From the NCBI RefSeq assembly GCF_013315695.1, contig NZ_CP054353.1: a DNA stretch of 64,000 bases, one strand, 5' to 3'. Position numbers and translations under genes: made by a program. Each line of letters opens with the position of its first letter. The first letter of the stretch is position 1. The notes under the pieces were generated by a model, which saw nothing but the letters and a program-made list of their open reading frames with translations, was not told the origin of the DNA and made no database searches. This document shows positions 7,356 through 31,824 of this stretch, piece after piece. The stretch comes from Escherichia coli (GTDB taxonomy: Bacteria > Pseudomonadota > Gammaproteobacteria > Enterobacterales > Enterobacteriaceae).

Positions 7356-9158
7356 TTAGCGGTCCACATCTGACATAACAAAATCGATACTGCCCAGATA
7401 AACAATCAGGTCAGACACCAGGCTGCCGCGGATCGCCGCCGGAATTTGCTGCAAATGCGCATAACTCGGCGTACGGATACGGGTGCGATAACTCATGGTG
7501 CTACCGTCGCTGGTCAGGTAGTAACTGTTGATCCCCTTGGTCGCCTCAATCATCTGGAAGGATTCATTGGCAGGCATCACCGGCCCCCACGACACTTGCA
7601 GGAAGTGGGTGATCAGGGTTTCGATATGTTGCAGCGTGCGCTCTTTCGGTGGCGGCGTGGTCAGCGGGTGATCTGCTTTGAACGGGCCTTCCGGCATGTT
7701 GTTGAGGCACTGCTCAAGAATGCGCAGACTCTGGCGCAGCTCTTCCACTTTAAGCATTACGCGGGTGTAGCAGTCAGAAACACCACCACCCACCGGGATT
7801 TCAAAGTCGAAGTTTTCATAGCCAGAATACGGACGCGCCTTACGCACGTCGAAGTCGATCCCGGTAGCACGCAGGCCCGCGCCAGTGGTGCCCCACTCCA
7901 GTGCCTCTTTCGCGCCATAGGCGGCAACGCCCTGGGAACGACCTTTCAGAATGGTATTTTGCAGCGCCGCTTTCTCGTAAGACGCCAGACGTTTCGGCAT
8001 CCAGTCGAGGAACTCACGCAGCAGGCGATCCCAGCCGCGCGGCAGGTCGTGCGCTACGCCGCCAATACGGAACCACGCCGGGTGCATACGAAAACCCGTG
8101 ATTGCTTCCACCAGATCGTAAATTTTCTGACGATCGGTAAAGGCGAAGAACACTGGCGTCATCGCGCCGACGTCCTGAATAAAGGTGGAGATATACAGCA
8201 GATGGCTGTTGATGCGGAACAGCTCAGAAAGCATTACGCGAATGACGTTAACGCGATCCGGCACGGTGATCCCGGCCAGTTTCTCTACAGCCAGCACGTA
8301 AGGCATTTCGTTAACGCAGCCGCCGAGGTATTCGATACGGTCAGTATACGGAATGTAGCTGTGCCAGGACTGGCGTTCGCCCATTTTCTCCGCACCACGG
8401 TGGTGGTAGCCGATGTCTGGTACGCAGTCGACAATCTCTTCGCCATCGAGCTGCAAAACGATACGGAAAGCACCGTGCGCAGACGGGTGGTTCGGACCGA
8501 GGTTGAGGAACATGAAGTCCTCGTTTTCGGTGCCGCGCTTCATCCCCCACTCTTCAGGTTTGAAGGTCAGGGCTTCCATCTCCAGATCCTGTTTGGCTTT
8601 GGTCAGCTCAAACGGCGAGAATTCGGTAGCGCGCGCCGGGTAATCTTTACGCAGCGGATGACCTTTCCAGGTTTGCGGCATCATGATGCGGCGCAAATTA
8701 GGATGACCGTCGAAAGTAATGCCAAACAGATCCCAGGTTTCACGCTCATACCAGTTAGCGTTCGGGAACAGTTTGGTGAAGGTCGGTACGTGCAGGTCGT
8801 TTTCTGCCAGCGCCACCTTCAGCATGATGTCGCGGTTACGATCGATAGAAATCAGATGGTAGAAAACGGAAAAATCCGCGGCAGGTAATCCTTCGCGGTG
8901 TGTGCGCAGACGTTCGTCCATGCCGTGTAAGTCAAACAGCATGACGTAAGGTTTCGGCAGTTTCTTTAAGAAATCGCCAACTTCCAGTAATTGTTCACGC
9001 TTGATCCACACAACGGGAACCCCGGTGCGAGTCGCCTGAACAGTAAAGGCATCCGGCCCAAAACGGTTGCGCAGTTCGCCAATCACCGGATCATCAAGAT
9101 GATCGCGGGTCTGCCAGGCGGGTTCTTGCGCGGTTAAGTCGGTCATATTGTTCACCAT
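7356..9158 (-). CDS. nuoC: NADH:quinone oxidoreductase fused subunit C/D
   Basis: 600-aa ORF, single fused NuoC+NuoD as known for E. coli; exact start (MVNNMTDL vs MTDL) uncertain. Confidence 0.93.
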
Positions 9159-9251
9159 TGCAAATGGTCCGTGGTGACTGTCGGCGCAGTAAGCTTCGCG
9201 AAATAGATTTAGGAATAAGCGAAGAAAAATCCCTTTGCCGACAGGCGCAAA

Positions 9252-9914
9252 TTAAATCTCGTCAGGTGTACGCAGGTTGGTTACGGCAATGCGTTCACCG
9301 CGCTTGCGTTCGCGCTCTGATTGCATATTGGCGCGATAAACGCCCTGATCGCCAACCACCCAGGAGAGCGGACGACGTTCTTTGCCGATAGATTCCTGCA
9401 ACAGCATCAGTGCCTGCATGTACGCTTCAGGACGCGGCGGGCAGCCCGGGATATACACATCAACCGGGATGAATTTATCAACGCCCTGCACAACGGAATA
9501 AATATCGTACATACCGCCAGAGTTGGCACAGGCACCCATTGAGATAACCCATTTGGGTTCCAGCATCTGGTCATACAGACGCTGAATAACCGGTGCCATT
9601 TTGGTAAAGCAGGTTCCTGCCACCACCATCAGGTCAGCCTGACGCGGCGAAGCACGCAATACTTCTGCGCCAAAACGCGCCACGTCATGCACCGCGGTAA
9701 ACGAAGTCACCATCTCAACGTAACAGCAGGAAAGACCGAAGTTATACGGCCAAATTGAGTTTTTACGACCCCAGTTAACCATGTCATTGAGCTTGCCCAT
9801 AAACACGTTTTTGTTAACTTCTTGCTCCAGAGGGTCGGTTACGATCTCCTGCTTTTGCAGGGGGTAACGGTCGTTCTCACCGTTGGGATCTATGCGGGTG
9901 AGCGTATAATCCAT
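9252..9914 (-). CDS. nuoB: NADH:quinone oxidoreductase subunit B
   Basis: 220-aa [18 protein letters not shown]... with CCxxE/GCPP Fe-S cluster motifs. Confidence 0.95.
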
Positions 9915-27007: not shown

Positions 27008-27901
27008 ATGAAGATAGTGATCACCGGAGGGACGGGATTAATTGGTCGCCATTTGATTCCGCGTTTGCTGGATCTGGGCCATCAAATCACGGTAGTGACG
27101 CGTAACCCGCAGAAAGCCAGTTCCGTTCTCGGCCCTCGGGTGACACTATGGCAAGGGCTTGCCGATCAAAGTAACCTCAACGGCGTTGATGCGGTAATCA
27201 ACCTGGCCGGAGAACCGATTGCTGATAAACGCTGGACTCACGAGCAAAAAGAGCGTCTCTGCCAAAGCCGCTGGAATATCACGCAAAAACTGGTCGATTT
27301 GATTAATGCCAGCGACACGCCACCGTCGGTACTCATTTCCGGCTCGGCAACGGGCTATTATGGCGACTTAGGTGAAGTGGTGGTTACCGAAGAGGAACCG
27401 CCGCATAACGAATTTACCCATAAACTCTGCGCCCGCTGGGAAGAAATTGCCTGTCGGGCACAAAGTGACAAAACGCGAGTGTGCCTGCTGCGTACCGGCG
27501 TAGTGCTGGCACCGGATGGCGGTATTCTCGGTAAAATGCTGCCGCCGTTTCGTCTTGGCCTGGGCGGGCCGATTGGTTCCGGTCGGCAGTATCTGGCCTG
27601 GATTCATATTGATGATATGGTCAACGGCATTCTCTGGCTGCTGGATAACGAGCTGCGCGGGCCATTTAATATGGTTTCGCCCTACCCGGTACGCAATGAA
27701 CAATTTGCCCATGCGCTCGGTCATGCGCTGCATCGCCCGGCTATTTTGCGCGTCCCCGCAACCGCCATTCGGCTGTTAATGGGCGAATCTTCAGTACTGG
27801 TATTAGGTGGACAACGCGCGCTGCCTAAACGGCTGGAAGAAGCGGGTTTTGCGTTTCGTTGGTACGATTTAGAAGAGGCGCTGGAAAACGTAGTCCAGTA
27901 A
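27008..27901 (+). CDS. yfcH: Epimerase-family protein YfcH (NAD-binding Rossmann, SDR39U1-like)
   Basis: 297-aa [19 protein letters not shown]... with GxxGxxG motif. Confidence 0.92.
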
Positions 27902-27910
27902 TTTTTTACG

Positions 27911-27947
27911 TTCTTTCATGCCTGGCAATTATTACCAGGCATGAAAG
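27911..27947. terminator. Bidirectional hairpin terminator after yfcH
   Basis: 13-bp perfect stem CTTTCATGCCTGG-caattatta-CCAGGCATGAAAG preceded by TTTTTT. Confidence 0.75.
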
Positions 27948-27961
27948 CGCGTTATTTACCT

Positions 27962-29401
27962 TTATCTACGAGCTACTTCGGGCGCGGCATAGCGAGTGCC
28001 AAAACGGCTCCATTTTGCCAGAAAAGCAAATAAAAGAGCGATCGCAAAGCAACTCAAATTAAAAAACGTCCACGGCAGGTAATCAAGTGTTGCAACACCA
28101 AGCGTTTTCGCCATAAACATCCCGGAAATAGTCCAGGGAAAAAGTCCTTCCAGCAAAGTGGCTCCAGACTCCATGGCCCGCGACATATTCACTTTATGCA
28201 ATTGATGTTCGTCATAGCACGGATCATACATGCTTTTGACCAGAAAAAAGCTAATGACGGCATTTCCAGTACAGGCCACTAATAATGTACTGGAAAACAT
28301 CGTAGCCAGAACGACGCTGGTTACAGAGCGTAATTTCTTAACCAGACGTTGCAGGACAATATTTAATCCGCCAGATGCCTCAAGTGCTGATGCAAATAAA
28401 AATGCACAAAGCATCACCACAATCGGACTGACCATAGAATAGATTCCGCCGCGATTGAGAAGCACCATAAGATTTTTAGCCACCAGCGGATCGCTGGCAA
28501 TACCATCAAATTGTAGTAACATGGTATCTTTAAAACCATTTACAGCGGATTGAACCATATCCATCCATGCAATCGGCTGAAATATTGCACCAATAAATAA
28601 AGCGAGGAACGAAGAGGCAATTAATACTACTGTAGTATCCCATTTTTTTAGCGCACCGAAGAACACCAGTAGTGCGGGAAGCAAACACAGCGGATTTAAC
28701 CAAAAAAGTCGCTGTAATACATCTCTCATAATGGCAATATTCTCAATTTGCTGATTCATTTCATTCAGGCCGCTTCCGGCCCACCAGAAGCCAAAACATG
28801 AGACGAAAAAAGCAGGAATAGAGGTATACATCATATTGCGAATACTTTGCCATAACTCGACGCCCGCAGCCATCGCTGCCATATTGGTGGTATCGGAAAG
28901 AGGCGATAATTTATCACCAAAATAGGAACCCGAAATCACCGCCCCGGCGGTAATCGGTAATGAAACGTCCATCGCCGCAGCCACGGCCATCAATGCTACG
29001 CCGATAGTACCCGCCGTACCCCATGATGTTCCGGTAAAAAGAGAGATACAAACTGTCACCAGGAAGGCTGTCAAATAGAGATAATGAGGGCTTACCATTT
29101 CCAGACCATATAAAACCATTAAAGGAATTGTTCCGGAAACTATCCAGCAGCCAATCAACATCCCGATAGAGAGTAAAATAAGCATTGCCGGAACTGCTTC
29201 TTTAATTTTACTCATAAATATATTAACAATATCTCTCCAGCGCGCACCATAATACCTGGCATAAAAAGCAGTAACCAACGTCACTACAATCAACACAAAC
29301 TCCACGGGGGCATTAAGTATCCCGACGCCAGCCAGGAACAATATAAAAATAATAGCCAGAATGATCATCGCCGAGCTAAAGGATGGCTGATTTATTGTCA
29401 T
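27962..29401 (-). CDS. NhaC-family membrane transporter (Na+/H+ antiporter-like; substrate unknown) - accessory gene
   Basis: 479-aa polytopic ORF with NhaC-type motifs (TGTSWGTAGTIG, GDKLSPLSDTT); start ATGA overlaps upstream gene stop; AT-richer than neighbours by eye. Confidence 0.8.
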   Translation of the reverse strand: MTINQPSFSSAMIILAIIFILFLAGVGILNAPVEFVLIVVTLVTAFYARYYGARWRDIVNIFMSKIKEAVPAMLILLSIGMLIGCWIVSGTIPLMVLYGLEMVSPHYLYLTAFLVTVCISLFTGTSWGTAGTIGVALMAVAAAMDVSLPITAGAVISGSYFGDKLSPLSDTTNMAAMAAGVELWQSIRNMMYTSIPAFFVSCFGFWWAGSGLNEMNQQIENIAIMRDVLQRLFWLNPLCLLPALLVFFGALKKWDTTVVLIASSFLALFIGAIFQPIAWMDMVQSAVNGFKDTMLLQFDGIASDPLVAKNLMVLLNRGGIYSMVSPIVVMLCAFLFASALEASGGLNIVLQRLVKKLRSVTSVVLATMFSSTLLVACTGNAVISFFLVKSMYDPCYDEHQLHKVNMSRAMESGATLLEGLFPWTISGMFMAKTLGVATLDYLPWTFFNLSCFAIALLFAFLAKWSRFGTRYAAPEVARR

Positions 29402-30615
29402 GGTTTCGTCCTTAGCGAGTCAAAAGCACGCTCCAGATCGGCAATTAAAAGAGCGGCATTTTCCTGCCCAAGCGAGAGACGAATTAATCCGCGCGGGATC
29501 TCCGCATCAACCAGTGCAGACTGATTATAACCACGGTTAGGTGAGATAATCAGGCTTTCATAGCCGCCCCAGCTACAGCCCGGTTTGAAAATACGGCAGG
29601 CATCGATAAAGCATTTCACTTCCTCAAAGCCGGCTCCTTTTAATTCGAAACTAAACAGTCCTGAAAAGCCACACATCTGGCGACGAATTATCTCTTTTTC
29701 CTTATCTGTAGCGCAGAGAGGATGACGTATATTTTCCACCTCATCACGAGTAGCTAACCATTCAATAACGTTAATCGCGTTATGCTGATGCGTTGCCATT
29801 CTGATCGGGAGTGTTCGTATACCACGTAACAGTAACCAGGCGCTAAACGGCGAAAGCACGGCACCTAATAGCTGATGCGAGAAATCACGAATGATGCTCA
29901 TCAATTCACGGCGGGTGATTACCACACCAGCTAACACATCACTGTGCCCGGCGAGATATTTTGTGCAGGAATGAATGACAATATCAAATCCCAGACTTAA
30001 CGGTTTTTGAAATAGCGGTGTCGGCCAGGTGTTATCAATTGCGGTGATAATCCCATAACGGGTCGCCAGTTGAGCTATCGCCTGTAAATCAACAATCTGC
30101 ATTGTCATGGTGCCGGGTGACTCAGCGTATATCATTCGGGTATTCAGTTTGATTTTTTGTTCAATAATATTGATATCGCCGTTGGAGATAATGTCATATT
30201 CAATATGGTATTTTTTTGCCAGGTTTTTAACTAATTCGATAGCCGGACCATAGATTTGATTAACTAATAAAATATGGTCACCGCTGTTTAACAAACCGAC
30301 CATCACTGCGCTGATTGCCCCCATGCCTGATGCAAAGCACCGCGCCTCTTCCCCCCCCTCCAGCAAAGCAAGTTTGGTTTCAACCATACTTACGGTTGGA
30401 TTTAAGCCGCGACTGTATATGTAACGCTGGGCTTCGTGACGCATATCATCACAATACTGCTGGTAATTCTTCTGCACAAAAAGACTGGTTTGAATAATCG
30501 GCGGCGCAACGGCACCGAAATACTCATCATGATTTTCATTTATACCGGAACAGGCAAGGTAATCGGATTCGGCAATATTTCCATCATTGAGTAACATGTT
30601 CTGATAACTGTTCAT
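29398..30615 (-). CDS. Cys/Met-metabolism PLP-dependent enzyme (cystathionine beta-lyase / gamma-synthase / methionine gamma-lyase family) - accessory gene
   Basis: 405-aa ORF with family motifs GAVAPPIIQTSLF and PLP-lysine motif SCTKYLAGHSDVLAGV. Confidence 0.8.
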   Translation of the reverse strand: MNSYQNMLLNDGNIAESDYLACSGINENHDEYFGAVAPPIIQTSLFVQKNYQQYCDDMRHEAQRYIYSRGLNPTVSMVETKLALLEGGEEARCFASGMGAISAVMVGLLNSGDHILLVNQIYGPAIELVKNLAKKYHIEYDIISNGDINIIEQKIKLNTRMIYAESPGTMTMQIVDLQAIAQLATRYGIITAIDNTWPTPLFQKPLSLGFDIVIHSCTKYLAGHSDVLAGVVITRRELMSIIRDFSHQLLGAVLSPFSAWLLLRGIRTLPIRMATHQHNAINVIEWLATRDEVENIRHPLCATDKEKEIIRRQMCGFSGLFSFELKGAGFEEVKCFIDACRIFKPGCSWGGYESLIISPNRGYNQSALVDAEIPRGLIRLSLGQENAALLIADLERAFDSLRTKP

Positions 30616-30861
30616 TTTATTTCCCTTATGTTTTTGTACAGAGAAATAGTAATATTATCATCTGGAAAAACCTTTGCACTTTTGCCAGTAACGGACTTGC
30701 CGTGGCAGACAATTAAAGAACAGATTGTAGGAACTCACATTTAAATCATATGGATTATGAATATTTTATTTATAAAGAAAAACATATATAAGCGACAAGT
30801 TAAAATACATTGAAGAAAGGGATAAATAAATGTGAGGAATATAGTTACGTTTACTACATGA

Positions 30862-30893
30862 CTGTCTCTTGCGGTCATGACTGCAAGAGACAG
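30862..30893. repeat. Perfect 11-bp inverted repeat (stem-loop) between the accessory operon and rpnB
   Basis: CTGTCTCTTGC-ggtcatgact-GCAAGAGACAG; no T-tract on either side. Confidence 0.6.
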
Positions 30894-30921
30894 ATTTAAT
30901 TAGAATAAAGTTCCACAGACG

Positions 30922-31824
30922 TCACTGCTTCTGGTTCAGAAGCTCCTCTGGCGAAAGTCGGGTCAGCGTCAGAACTAACTCTCGGTCTAAACCTCTCTCC
31001 AGCATCTCCTGAGCAATACGCAGGGCTTCTTCGCGTTTGCCCAGAATTAATCCATCATTCCGCCCTTCTTCACGTAATCTGTCAGCAATAGTCATCAGTT
31101 TCTCCTTTTCTTGTGGTGCGCGTTCCGCTATCTCACCAATAAATGCACGGAAACGCTGGGCATCTCCCGTTTGTAATACGTAATTAAACAGGGCTTTTAG
31201 CTGTCTGTCATTAGTGTTCCCTGTAACTAGCAGCGAAACAATTTGGTCGACTAATCCCAACAGATCGCGCTGACGAATATGTTTCTGAATTAACTCCAAC
31301 AGCGCCATTTTGCGATGTTGCATAATCTCGTCATCTGGCACCACGGTAATATCCACCAGCGGAAAAGCTGATGAATATATTTTGCGGGCTATAGCAGGCT
31401 CGGCAAATTCATCAAGCCAGCAGAGTGAATAAGGATAAGGACTTCTGCAACCATGATAAAACAGCATCGGGATCACCAATGGAAGCTCTTTATAGCCTGC
31501 ATCAAGATGGTTTTGCATCGCCGCAATGGAATAGCGCATCATGCGAAAAGCCATTAATTCTTCCGGCTTACTTTGGTGCTCTATCACCACATAAATATAA
31601 CCCGCTCTCTCCTGCGTTTTCACAGACCACAAGAGGTCGGAATAATATTGCCGCAGGTCTTCATCAATAAAACTGTTTGGTTCCAGTTTAAGCGTCGTCA
31701 AATCACACAGTTTGCGCAGCGGCGCGGGAAGATGAATATCAATAAAATCCCGCGCGGTGTCTGGATGGCGTAAAAAAGATTTAAATACCGCATCATGCGG
31801 CGTGGAAGTTGTCGATATTGTCAT
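30922..31824 (-). CDS. rpnB: Recombination-promoting nuclease RpnB (YfcI; PD-(D/E)XK transposase_31 family)
   Basis: 300-aa [36 protein letters not shown]...YVVIEHQS..., typical Rpn/YhgA-like. Confidence 0.88.

Follow-up and report, generated by a model that had tools for sequence, protein, structure and literature searches.

A putative uptake-and-conversion gene pair, an NhaC-family transporter with a Cys/Met-family pyridoxal phosphate-dependent enzyme, between yfcH and rpnB in Escherichia coli

A two-gene operon between yfcH and rpnB

We describe a pair of genes found in a 64,000-nucleotide stretch of an Escherichia coli chromosome (contig NZ_CP054353.1; "the window" is this whole stretch). 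The surrounding gene order is yfcF, yfcG, folX, yfcH, rpnB, hisP, hisM, and two open reading frames (ORFs) on the minus strand sit between yfcH (27008-27901, plus strand) and rpnB (30922-31824, minus strand). The first gene of the operon (29398-30615, minus strand) encodes a 405-amino-acid enzyme of the pyridoxal 5'-phosphate (PLP)-dependent Cys/Met metabolism family (Pfam PF01053). The second gene, nhaC (27962-29401, minus strand), encodes a 479-amino-acid secondary transporter of the NhaC family (Pfam PF03553, NCBIfam TIGR00931, and TC 2.A.35). RefSeq labels the two products "trans-sulfuration enzyme family protein" and "Na+/H+ antiporter NhaC", and both labels probably hide the real function of the pair.

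The stop codon of the first gene and the start codon of the second overlap in a four-nucleotide ATGA (29398-29401), and an AAGGA Shine-Dalgarno sequence lies 8 nt 5' of the second gene's start codon. The original prediction, which was made by reading the DNA, had proposed two co-transcribed minus-strand genes with this overlap. We verified the ORFs and the overlap, and the overlap together with the AAGGA site supports translational coupling. The motifs that it quoted, SCTKYLAGH in the enzyme and GTSWGTAGT in the transporter, are both present.

It had also stated that E. coli K-12 lacks these genes, and this was correct: in K-12 MG1655, yfcH is followed directly by rpnB, with only 82 bp at this site. 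In blastn comparisons, homology to K-12 stops at position 27884 of the window and restarts at 30940. The segment that replaces the K-12 DNA (27885-30939, 3,055 bp), as delimited by blastn against the K-12 locus and by the junction sequences, takes in the last six or so codons of both flanking genes. As had been suggested, it is AT-richer than its surroundings: the G+C content (GC) is 43.0% for the segment, 45.0% for the PLP enzyme gene, and 43.9% for nhaC, against 51.9% for the whole window. At third codon positions, GC is 43-45% in the gene pair against 55-59% in yfcH and hisP.

The enzyme, the transporter and their genomic linkage

The enzyme matches PF01053 (Cys_Met_Meta_PP) over its full length (E = 2.1e-112; residues 26-398 against model positions 8-380 of 381), but it does not reach the curated cut-off of any NCBIfam model. 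The best score was for the archaeal bifunctional L-alanine/L-glutamate racemase (NF041088, 391.4 bits against a cut-off of 629), followed by the uncharacterised family PRK05968 (372 against 508). Next came three models for methionine gamma-lyase (MGL; TIGR01328, 327.2 against 549.7; NF005263, 313.5 against 617; NF005695, 298.3 against 666), along with cystathionine gamma-synthase (CGS; 308 against 513) and two models for cystathionine beta-lyase (CBL; TIGR01324, 284 against 365.9; NF006538, 278.7 against 655). The top match in PDB was 9iz5, an "L-alanine/L-glutamate racemase" (E = 8e-80), and then came the CGS of Helicobacter pylori and several MGLs. In global alignments, the enzyme is 38% identical both to the racemase and to the MGL of Fusobacterium nucleatum, and for the E. 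coli enzymes the values are 35% (MetB) and 30% (MetC). At 30-38% identity to the characterised enzymes, function cannot be transferred by similarity alone.

The active site is more informative. The enzyme has the Schiff-base lysine K219 (in SCTKY), Y122 (in YGP), D194 (in DNTW), S348 (the start of SWGGYESL), and R379. K219, D194, Y122, Y67/R69, and R379 are invariant in an alignment of 17 sequences of its clade, and they align with the corresponding residues of MetC, MetB, and MGL. Thus all of the catalytic residues of PF01053 are in place: the lysine of SxTKY, the aspartate of DNT(F/W), the stacking tyrosine, the YxR motif, and the C-terminal arginine.

Four features around these residues divide the family. 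After the catalytic tyrosine, the enzyme has YGPA, compared to YEPS in MetC, YGCT in MGL, and YGGS in MetB. (The cysteine of YGC is a hallmark of MGL.) The PLP-binding aspartate lies in DNTW, as in MetC and the racemase; MetB, CGS, and MGL have DNTF. The substrate loop, SWGGYESL, is exactly that of MetC; its counterpart is SWGSHENL in the racemase and SLGGVESL or SLGDTETL in the gamma-enzymes. Finally, like the racemase, the enzyme lacks the PAxMTH segment that the gamma-enzymes carry. DNTW, the SWGGYESL-type loop, the proline, and the absence of MTH are not found in MetB, H. pylori CGS, or F. nucleatum MGL.

We also built a distance tree (neighbour-joining with 100 bootstraps) from an alignment of 87 sequences, comprising homologues fetched from genomes and reference enzymes. 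A "Trp-type" group, with this enzyme, MetC, and the racemase, was separated from a "gamma-type" group, with MetB, CGS, and MGL, in 100 of the 100 bootstraps. The motifs and the tree agree in placing the enzyme in the MetC-like, Trp-type half of the family. By this placement, it belongs to a branch whose characterised members act at the alpha or beta carbon (beta-elimination or racemisation).

Within that branch, the enzyme resembles E. coli MetC in its Pfam family, in its side of the split, and, when aligned with K-12 MetC, in all of the tryptophan-type features of the active site (DNTW, S339-W340 of the identical SWGGYESL, the proline of YxP, and no MTH loop). In MetC, R59 and D116 are the residues for the distal part of cystathionine, and the aligned positions here are G70 and E127. 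These replacements and the score below the CBL cut-off of TIGR01324, at only 30% identity, indicate that the enzyme is not an orthologue of MetC. The genetic contexts differ too: metC is a monocistronic gene of the methionine regulon, whereas this gene is coupled to a transporter and has no metbox. K-12 MetC itself is annotated as a beta-lyase, a cysteine desulfhydrase, and an alanine racemase.

Turning to the transporter, its match to PF03553 (Na_H_antiporter) has E = 1e-47, and it exceeds the cut-off of TIGR00931 (413.1 bits against 370, model positions 3-447 of 454), so that both of the family assignments made originally hold. The second-best NCBIfam match was a model for ArcD, an arginine/ornithine antiporter, well below its cut-off (224 bits against 650). 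Membership in the NhaC family does not imply Na+/H+ antiport: an NhaC-annotated protein of Staphylococcus aureus (0846) serves as that organism's principal importer of histidine (PMC10817146), MetT, also of the NhaC family, is predicted to transport methionine (PMC3228920, PMC2940859), and some NhaC genes are controlled by tyrosine T-boxes (PMC2494555). Since amino acid importers share the "Na+/H+ antiporter" label, it should be treated with caution. The likeness of our protein to S. aureus 0846, the predicted MetT, and ArcD is at the family level only (PF03553 in common), and the controls typical of MetT and TyrT genes (riboswitch, T-box, and metbox) were not found here; in particular, the locus has neither an S-box riboswitch nor tandem MetJ boxes. 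The genomic linkage of nhaC to the enzyme argues for an organic substrate of the transporter.

That linkage extends well beyond E. coli. For homologues of the PLP enzyme that are at least 48% identical, a gene for an NhaC protein lies immediately downstream in every distinct locus that we examined, with one type of exception (the Kluyvera ascorbata type, in which the enzyme gene stands beside a GNAT gene). These paired loci are from Enterobacteriaceae, halophilic Bacillaceae, Actinomycetota (Streptomyces and Nocardiopsis), and others, and they lie at unrelated chromosomal sites. A second clade, 42-44% identical to our enzyme, has the genes in the reverse order, with NhaC first and then the PLP enzyme (nine loci; bootstrap support 100/100); it includes Bacteroidota, KSB1, Calditrichia, a metagenome-assembled genome of Verrucomicrobia, and Shewanella kaireitica. 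The lists of top matches for the enzyme and for the transporter name the same genomes, and the identities of the two proteins run in parallel (enzyme/transporter, 66/66, 63/71, and 51/44%). Many of the taxa with homologues are halophiles. The suggestion that the pairing of a lyase-like enzyme with NhaC is functionally meaningful is borne out by this recurrence across phyla.

When we clustered all of the neighbouring ORFs at NhaC-paired loci, no other recurring neighbour emerged except for a GntR regulator of the LldR/PdhR/GlcC type. We also went through the neighbours for hints of the substrate, and the transporter and a regulator of the GntR or LacI type were the only ones to come up repeatedly. 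Sister clades (from Nonomuraea, Paenibacillus, Spirochaetes, and Rhodobacterales) have no NhaC; they have an ATP-binding cassette (ABC) importer of the CUT1 type together with GntR or LacI regulators. Because the ABC importer stands in for NhaC while the regulators are kept, the enzyme is consistently linked with the uptake of something exogenous. One ABC-linked operon ends in an AceE-like 2-oxo-acid dehydrogenase E1 and another in a GH38-like hydrolase. The sugar-like CUT1 importers and the GH38-like hydrolase hint at conjugated, possibly glycosylated, amino acids as potential substrates of these relatives. The constant theme across loci is one importer with this one enzyme. The MGL-like loci in our sample have no adjacent NhaC.

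In a single locus, that of Radiobacillus deserti, we also saw a gamma-type Cys/Met PLP paralogue (YGGT, DNTF; 8739-9881 of that locus) directly after the PLP-NhaC pair, and then a zinc alcohol dehydrogenase.

Proposed uptake and conversion of an amino acid, and the alternatives

We propose that the operon encodes a dedicated importer and a MetC-like PLP enzyme for a one-step conversion of the amino acid thus taken up, with beta-elimination as the most likely reaction; we put the probability of this at roughly 55%. The NhaC-family carrier would import one particular amino acid or derivative, driven by a Na+ or H+ gradient (import is the direction that we predict). Translated from the same mRNA, the PLP enzyme would then turn this compound into central metabolites in a single step. 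The reaction would probably take place at the alpha or beta carbon, and beta-elimination would yield pyruvate, ammonia, and a leaving group. The substrate would then be beta-substituted, and our working guess is a cysteine-derived or other S-substituted amino acid. The proposal starts from observed features of the locus, namely the gene structure, the translational coupling, the placement in a sub-branch of the family, the conservation of the pair across phyla, and the purifying selection described below. The Trp-type placement makes chemistry at the alpha or beta carbon the most likely. The AceE-like E1 in an ABC-linked operon and the GntR regulators, which resemble sensors of lactate or pyruvate, both fit a 2-oxo-acid product. 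The broader idea of a catabolic enzyme that is coupled to a transporter is well supported.

Several observations weigh against this proposal. No close homologue of the enzyme is characterised, with every characterised enzyme being just 30-38% identical. By hidden Markov model scores, the MGL and CGS models (327 and 308) rank above CBL (284), so the MetC-like placement comes from the motifs and the distance tree and is not backed by overall similarity. Of the characterised relatives, the one with the highest score carries the label of a racemase and not of a lyase. The change from R59/D116 to G70/E127 means that cystathionine itself is not favoured as the substrate. On the transporter's side, the NhaC equivalog cut-off is passed, so that true Na+/H+ antiport is possible, and the loci of the Kluyvera ascorbata type keep the enzyme without NhaC.

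E. coli has several precedents for this kind of arrangement. The tnaAB, sdaCB, dsdXA, tdcBC, and cyuPA operons each co-transcribe an importer with one converting enzyme, as here. Such pairs combine a dedicated importer with an enzyme that makes a keto acid and ammonia (the enzyme of cyuPA is not PLP-dependent). Both protein families differ from those of our pair, and our island lacks a gene for a cognate regulator. The locus adds an uncharacterised case to a familiar class of systems. Our literature searches on NhaC with Cys/Met-family lyases returned nothing on this locus, only MetT, the megL of F. nucleatum, and unrelated genes, and a search on phylogroup F and NhaC returned nothing.

More tentatively, the pair may represent a large branch of uncharacterised PLP enzymes that crosses phyla and in which each enzyme is wired to an importer, either NhaC or an ABC system of the CUT1 type. 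The substrate of such enzymes may be something other than methionine, cysteine, or cystathionine. Candidates may include sulfonated, S- or O-conjugated, glycosylated, or D-amino acids from the diet, plants, or algae. If this is true, then the pair would open an undescribed nutrient niche for E. coli of the phylogroup F type, Kluyvera, Citrobacter, and many halophiles. The pair is kept from Enterobacteriaceae to Bacteroidota, so a single identification of the substrate would annotate thousands of genes, and it would add a new specificity to an enzyme family that is already well studied. The locus could also explain a lineage-specific nutritional trait, or the production of H2S or another thiol.

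The main rival explanation is that the enzyme is a racemase, so that a D-amino acid (or the L-form) would be imported and the enantiomers interconverted for use by the host's own pathways. One enzyme and one transporter would suffice for such a pathway, and the K-12 annotation notes racemase as a side activity of MetC. Furthermore, the archaeal racemase is the top match in both NCBIfam and PDB, and it shares with our enzyme the DNTW and SWG motifs and a shortened loop after ESL. On the other hand, the score is well under the racemase cut-off (391 against 629), and the global identity of 38% is no higher than that to the MGL of F. nucleatum. The racemase and its bacterial look-alikes have YSW(A/T) where this clade has YGP(A/T), and the racemase's SWGSHENL differs from SWGGYESL. 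Also, the sequences of the YSW type form a separate clade that is linked to ABC importers and not to NhaC. We consider a racemase role unlikely.

For some MGL genes, such as that of Citrobacter freundii, an adjacent permease and a catabolic role are known, and the original prediction saw in our pair something reminiscent of MGL loci. A methionine (or homocysteine) gamma-lyase with a MetT-like importer would produce methanethiol or H2S, 2-oxobutyrate, and ammonia. The MGLs of Fusobacterium, Pseudomonas, and Citrobacter are in the same Pfam family as our enzyme and have similar overall scores; TIGR01328 in particular gives a high if sub-threshold score (327 bits), and the leading PDB matches include several MGL structures. 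UniRef names some of the 50%-identical homologues "homocysteine desulfhydrase". Also, MetT belongs to the NhaC family (PMC3228920). However, the enzyme misses all of the MGL cut-offs, it lacks the cysteine of YGC, and the DNTF, SLG(D/G), and MTH motifs of the gamma family are absent. It lies on the opposite side of the 100/100 split from the MGL of F. nucleatum, and the sampled MGL-like loci do not have an adjacent NhaC. Nor is there an S-box (S-adenosylmethionine) riboswitch or a MetJ box. Gamma-elimination of methionine is thus improbable: the analogy is contradicted by the cut-offs, by the YGP, DNTW, and SWGGYESL motifs, by the missing MTH loop, and by the tree. As a practical correction, the locus should not be annotated as encoding a methionine gamma-lyase.

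It is very improbable that nhaC encodes a true Na+/H+ antiporter, for tolerance of salt or alkali, that happens to lie next to an unrelated or redundant biosynthetic paralogue of MetB or MetC. The TIGR00931 score (413 against 370 bits) and the many halophilic taxa with homologues would fit an antiporter. But the two genes are tightly adjacent across many phyla and in two gene orders, an ABC importer takes NhaC's place in the sister clades, and the E. coli genes are translationally coupled. Besides, the equivalog label is unreliable, as the histidine importer of S. aureus carries it (PMC10817146), and the enzyme falls under every biosynthetic cut-off and is not accompanied by MetJ boxes.

Distribution, history and regulation of the locus

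The original prediction that this is an accessory locus is supported by a comparison of complete E. coli genomes: 68 of 5,426 (1.25%) have the segment, in every case on the chromosome. The carriers include IAI39 and CE10 (O7:K1) as well as isolates from humans, livestock, pets, birds, and wastewater. IAI39 and CE10 are O7:K1 extraintestinal isolates, and the locus marks a minority of strains. Sixty-seven of the E. coli copies are at least 99% identical. A second haplotype, from one further strain, R32_14_1F, isolated from a goat (NZ_CP074749.1, 1603936-1615329), has just 93.5% nucleotide identity. It occupies essentially the same yfcH-rpnB junction as in the window, and in this strain the island is combined with K-12-like ends of rpnB and, in part, of yfcH. 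The flanks of the two haplotypes are 96-98% identical, as compared to 93.5% for the island.

Between these two haplotypes, synonymous divergence (dS) is 0.24 for the PLP enzyme gene and 0.35 for nhaC, and the ratios of nonsynonymous to synonymous divergence (dN/dS) are 0.071 and 0.092, respectively. This implies that both genes are under strong purifying selection. The least probable of the explanations that we considered is that the pair is a decaying relic without a present function in E. coli: it would fit the presence of the locus in only 1.25% of complete genomes and the damaged copies described next, but dN/dS of 0.07-0.09 over dS of 0.24-0.35, the two intact genes in all but two of the listed complete carriers, and the conserved ribosome-binding sites and upstream block all argue against it.

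The two exceptions are strain MS 21-1, in which ISEc23 (an insertion sequence of the IS66 family) interrupts the PLP enzyme gene, and CUVET19-1704, in which nhaC is split into ORFs of 403 and 89 amino acids. The same split is seen in at least 24 short-read contigs, some of which also carry a split PLP enzyme gene. The split ORFs in these assemblies could be real frameshifts or assembly errors. We had also considered whether "partial NhaC" proteins of 73-89 amino acids were relics of the island in strains that lack it, and rejected this: they are C-terminal pieces of frameshifted copies at the same locus.

The nearest relatives outside of E. coli are in Kluyvera, at 75-77% amino acid identity. 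A metagenomic contig whose enzyme is 77% identical (L088) has the order hisP-PLP-NhaC-GNAT-x-x-yfcH-folX, with no rpnB; compared to E. coli, the pair is 72% identical at the nucleotide level and the flanking core genes are 72-84% identical. Two other metagenomic contigs (L089 and L090), whose PLP protein is also 77% identical and clusters with Kluyvera proteins, have the enzyme and GNAT genes and no NhaC. In contigs of both types, the pair (or, in the latter, the enzyme gene alone) comes directly after hisP without rpnB, which makes rpnB the extra gene in E. coli. Elsewhere in the Enterobacteriaceae, the pair lies between uvrB and moaA in Citrobacter braakii, near smpB in [Enterobacter] lignolyticus, and at another unrelated site in strain RIT691. 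These unrelated sites imply that the pair moves between genomes. The GC of the pair ranges from 42% to 60% across enterobacterial copies.

A foreign origin had been suggested for the island, and in part this stands, as the DNA is AT-rich and patchily distributed. Thus two of the usual signs of a genomic island, atypical composition and a patchy distribution, are present, but we found no mobility genes at its borders, no direct repeats, and no transfer RNA gene or att site. In the list of ORFs, no integrase or transposase appears in or beside the segment, rpnB excepted. What speaks against a straightforward recent acquisition is the shared hisP-yfcH neighbourhood in Kluyvera, a divergence like that of core genes, and the old second haplotype. 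The second haplotype at the same junction and the same neighbourhood in Kluyvera imply that the polymorphism is old and predates the divergence of the flanks. The E. coli copy is better described as an old hisP-yfcH polymorphism that was mostly lost or is rarely retained, rather than as a recent foreign insertion. The junction itself does not separate gain from loss, because the 82-bp filler in K-12 has no homology to the island; we searched this filler for remnants of the island and found none.

The intergenic DNA upstream of the operon (30616-30921, 306 bp; 31.4% GC) had been taken as one extremely AT-rich leader. The composition is as claimed, but the distal 60 bp or so hold the hairpin at the end of rpnB (30862-30893) and are not part of the operon's 5' untranslated region. 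We take 30616-30861 (minus strand), which is AT-rich, as the promoter and leader region. The proximal 110 bp or so are conserved with the haplotype of R32_14_1F, with the Kluyvera-like contig L088, and partly with C. braakii. Within this block are a TGTGA element (at about 30722-30727) and, downstream of it, a palindrome, TGCCA-N15-TGGCA (30683-30707, found by a pattern search), about 70-90 bp upstream of the start codon. The palindrome is also present in L088 and in the R32_14_1F haplotype, and partly in C. braakii, and the intergenic DNA around these two elements is otherwise diverged. The block may hold an operator for a host regulator; the E. coli island itself does not encode a cognate one. 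The conserved TGTGA is a candidate CRP site, with a second half-site that is poor in all four species. A sigma-54 site built from TGGCA...GCA was rejected because the spacing between GG and GC is 7 and not 10 and because the element is not conserved in L088. Given the 31% GC of the leader DNA, silencing by H-NS, which had also been proposed, is a plausible candidate.

Searches for other regulatory signals were negative. A scan of 27800-31100 against Rfam at E <= 1 matched no family, so that no riboswitch or leader RNA was detected, and a search of the whole window for dimers of MetJ boxes, allowing up to 3 mismatches, gave none. No sigma-70-like consensus was found on the minus strand in 30616-30861. 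A scan for sigma-70 sites and terminators yielded no more sites than in shuffled sequence and flagged only two hairpins, one beyond each end of the two-gene unit and unrelated to each other.

The first of these hairpins (27913-27947) has a perfect 16-bp stem and lies between the convergent genes yfcH and nhaC. Its folding energy is -29.5 kcal/mol (z = -7.7; none of 200 shuffled sequences was equally stable), and it is kept in the second E. coli haplotype. It is terminator-like and would be usable from either side. The second (30862-30893), identified by the terminator scan and by folding, has a 14-bp stem just 3' of the stop codon of rpnB. It is also conserved in the second haplotype and divides rpnB from the promoter region of the operon. 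Its arms start with CTGTCTCTTG, which we take to match the first 10 nt of the inside end of IS50; this resemblance is probably a coincidence.

The ends of the neighbouring genes travel with the island. Sliding-window identity and protein comparisons indicate a divergent 3' end of rpnB (30922-31100, minus strand): the last 200 bp or so of the gene are 76-90% identical to K-12, as compared to 96-100% further in. The product has 300 amino acids here and 296 in K-12, with a 4-codon indel (EEGAMQGKHEE in K-12). The step in identity inside rpnB resembles a recombination breakpoint. In the window's haplotype, yfcH too departs from K-12 over its last six codons. That the divergent ends of both neighbours accompany the island is as expected if homologous recombination moves it.

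In E. coli ST2747 (NZ_CP007394.1), a yfcH probe aligns over just the first 410 of its 661 bases, and the annotation under this match names both the oxidoreductase and rpnB, which suggests a separate deletion that spans the 3' end of yfcH.

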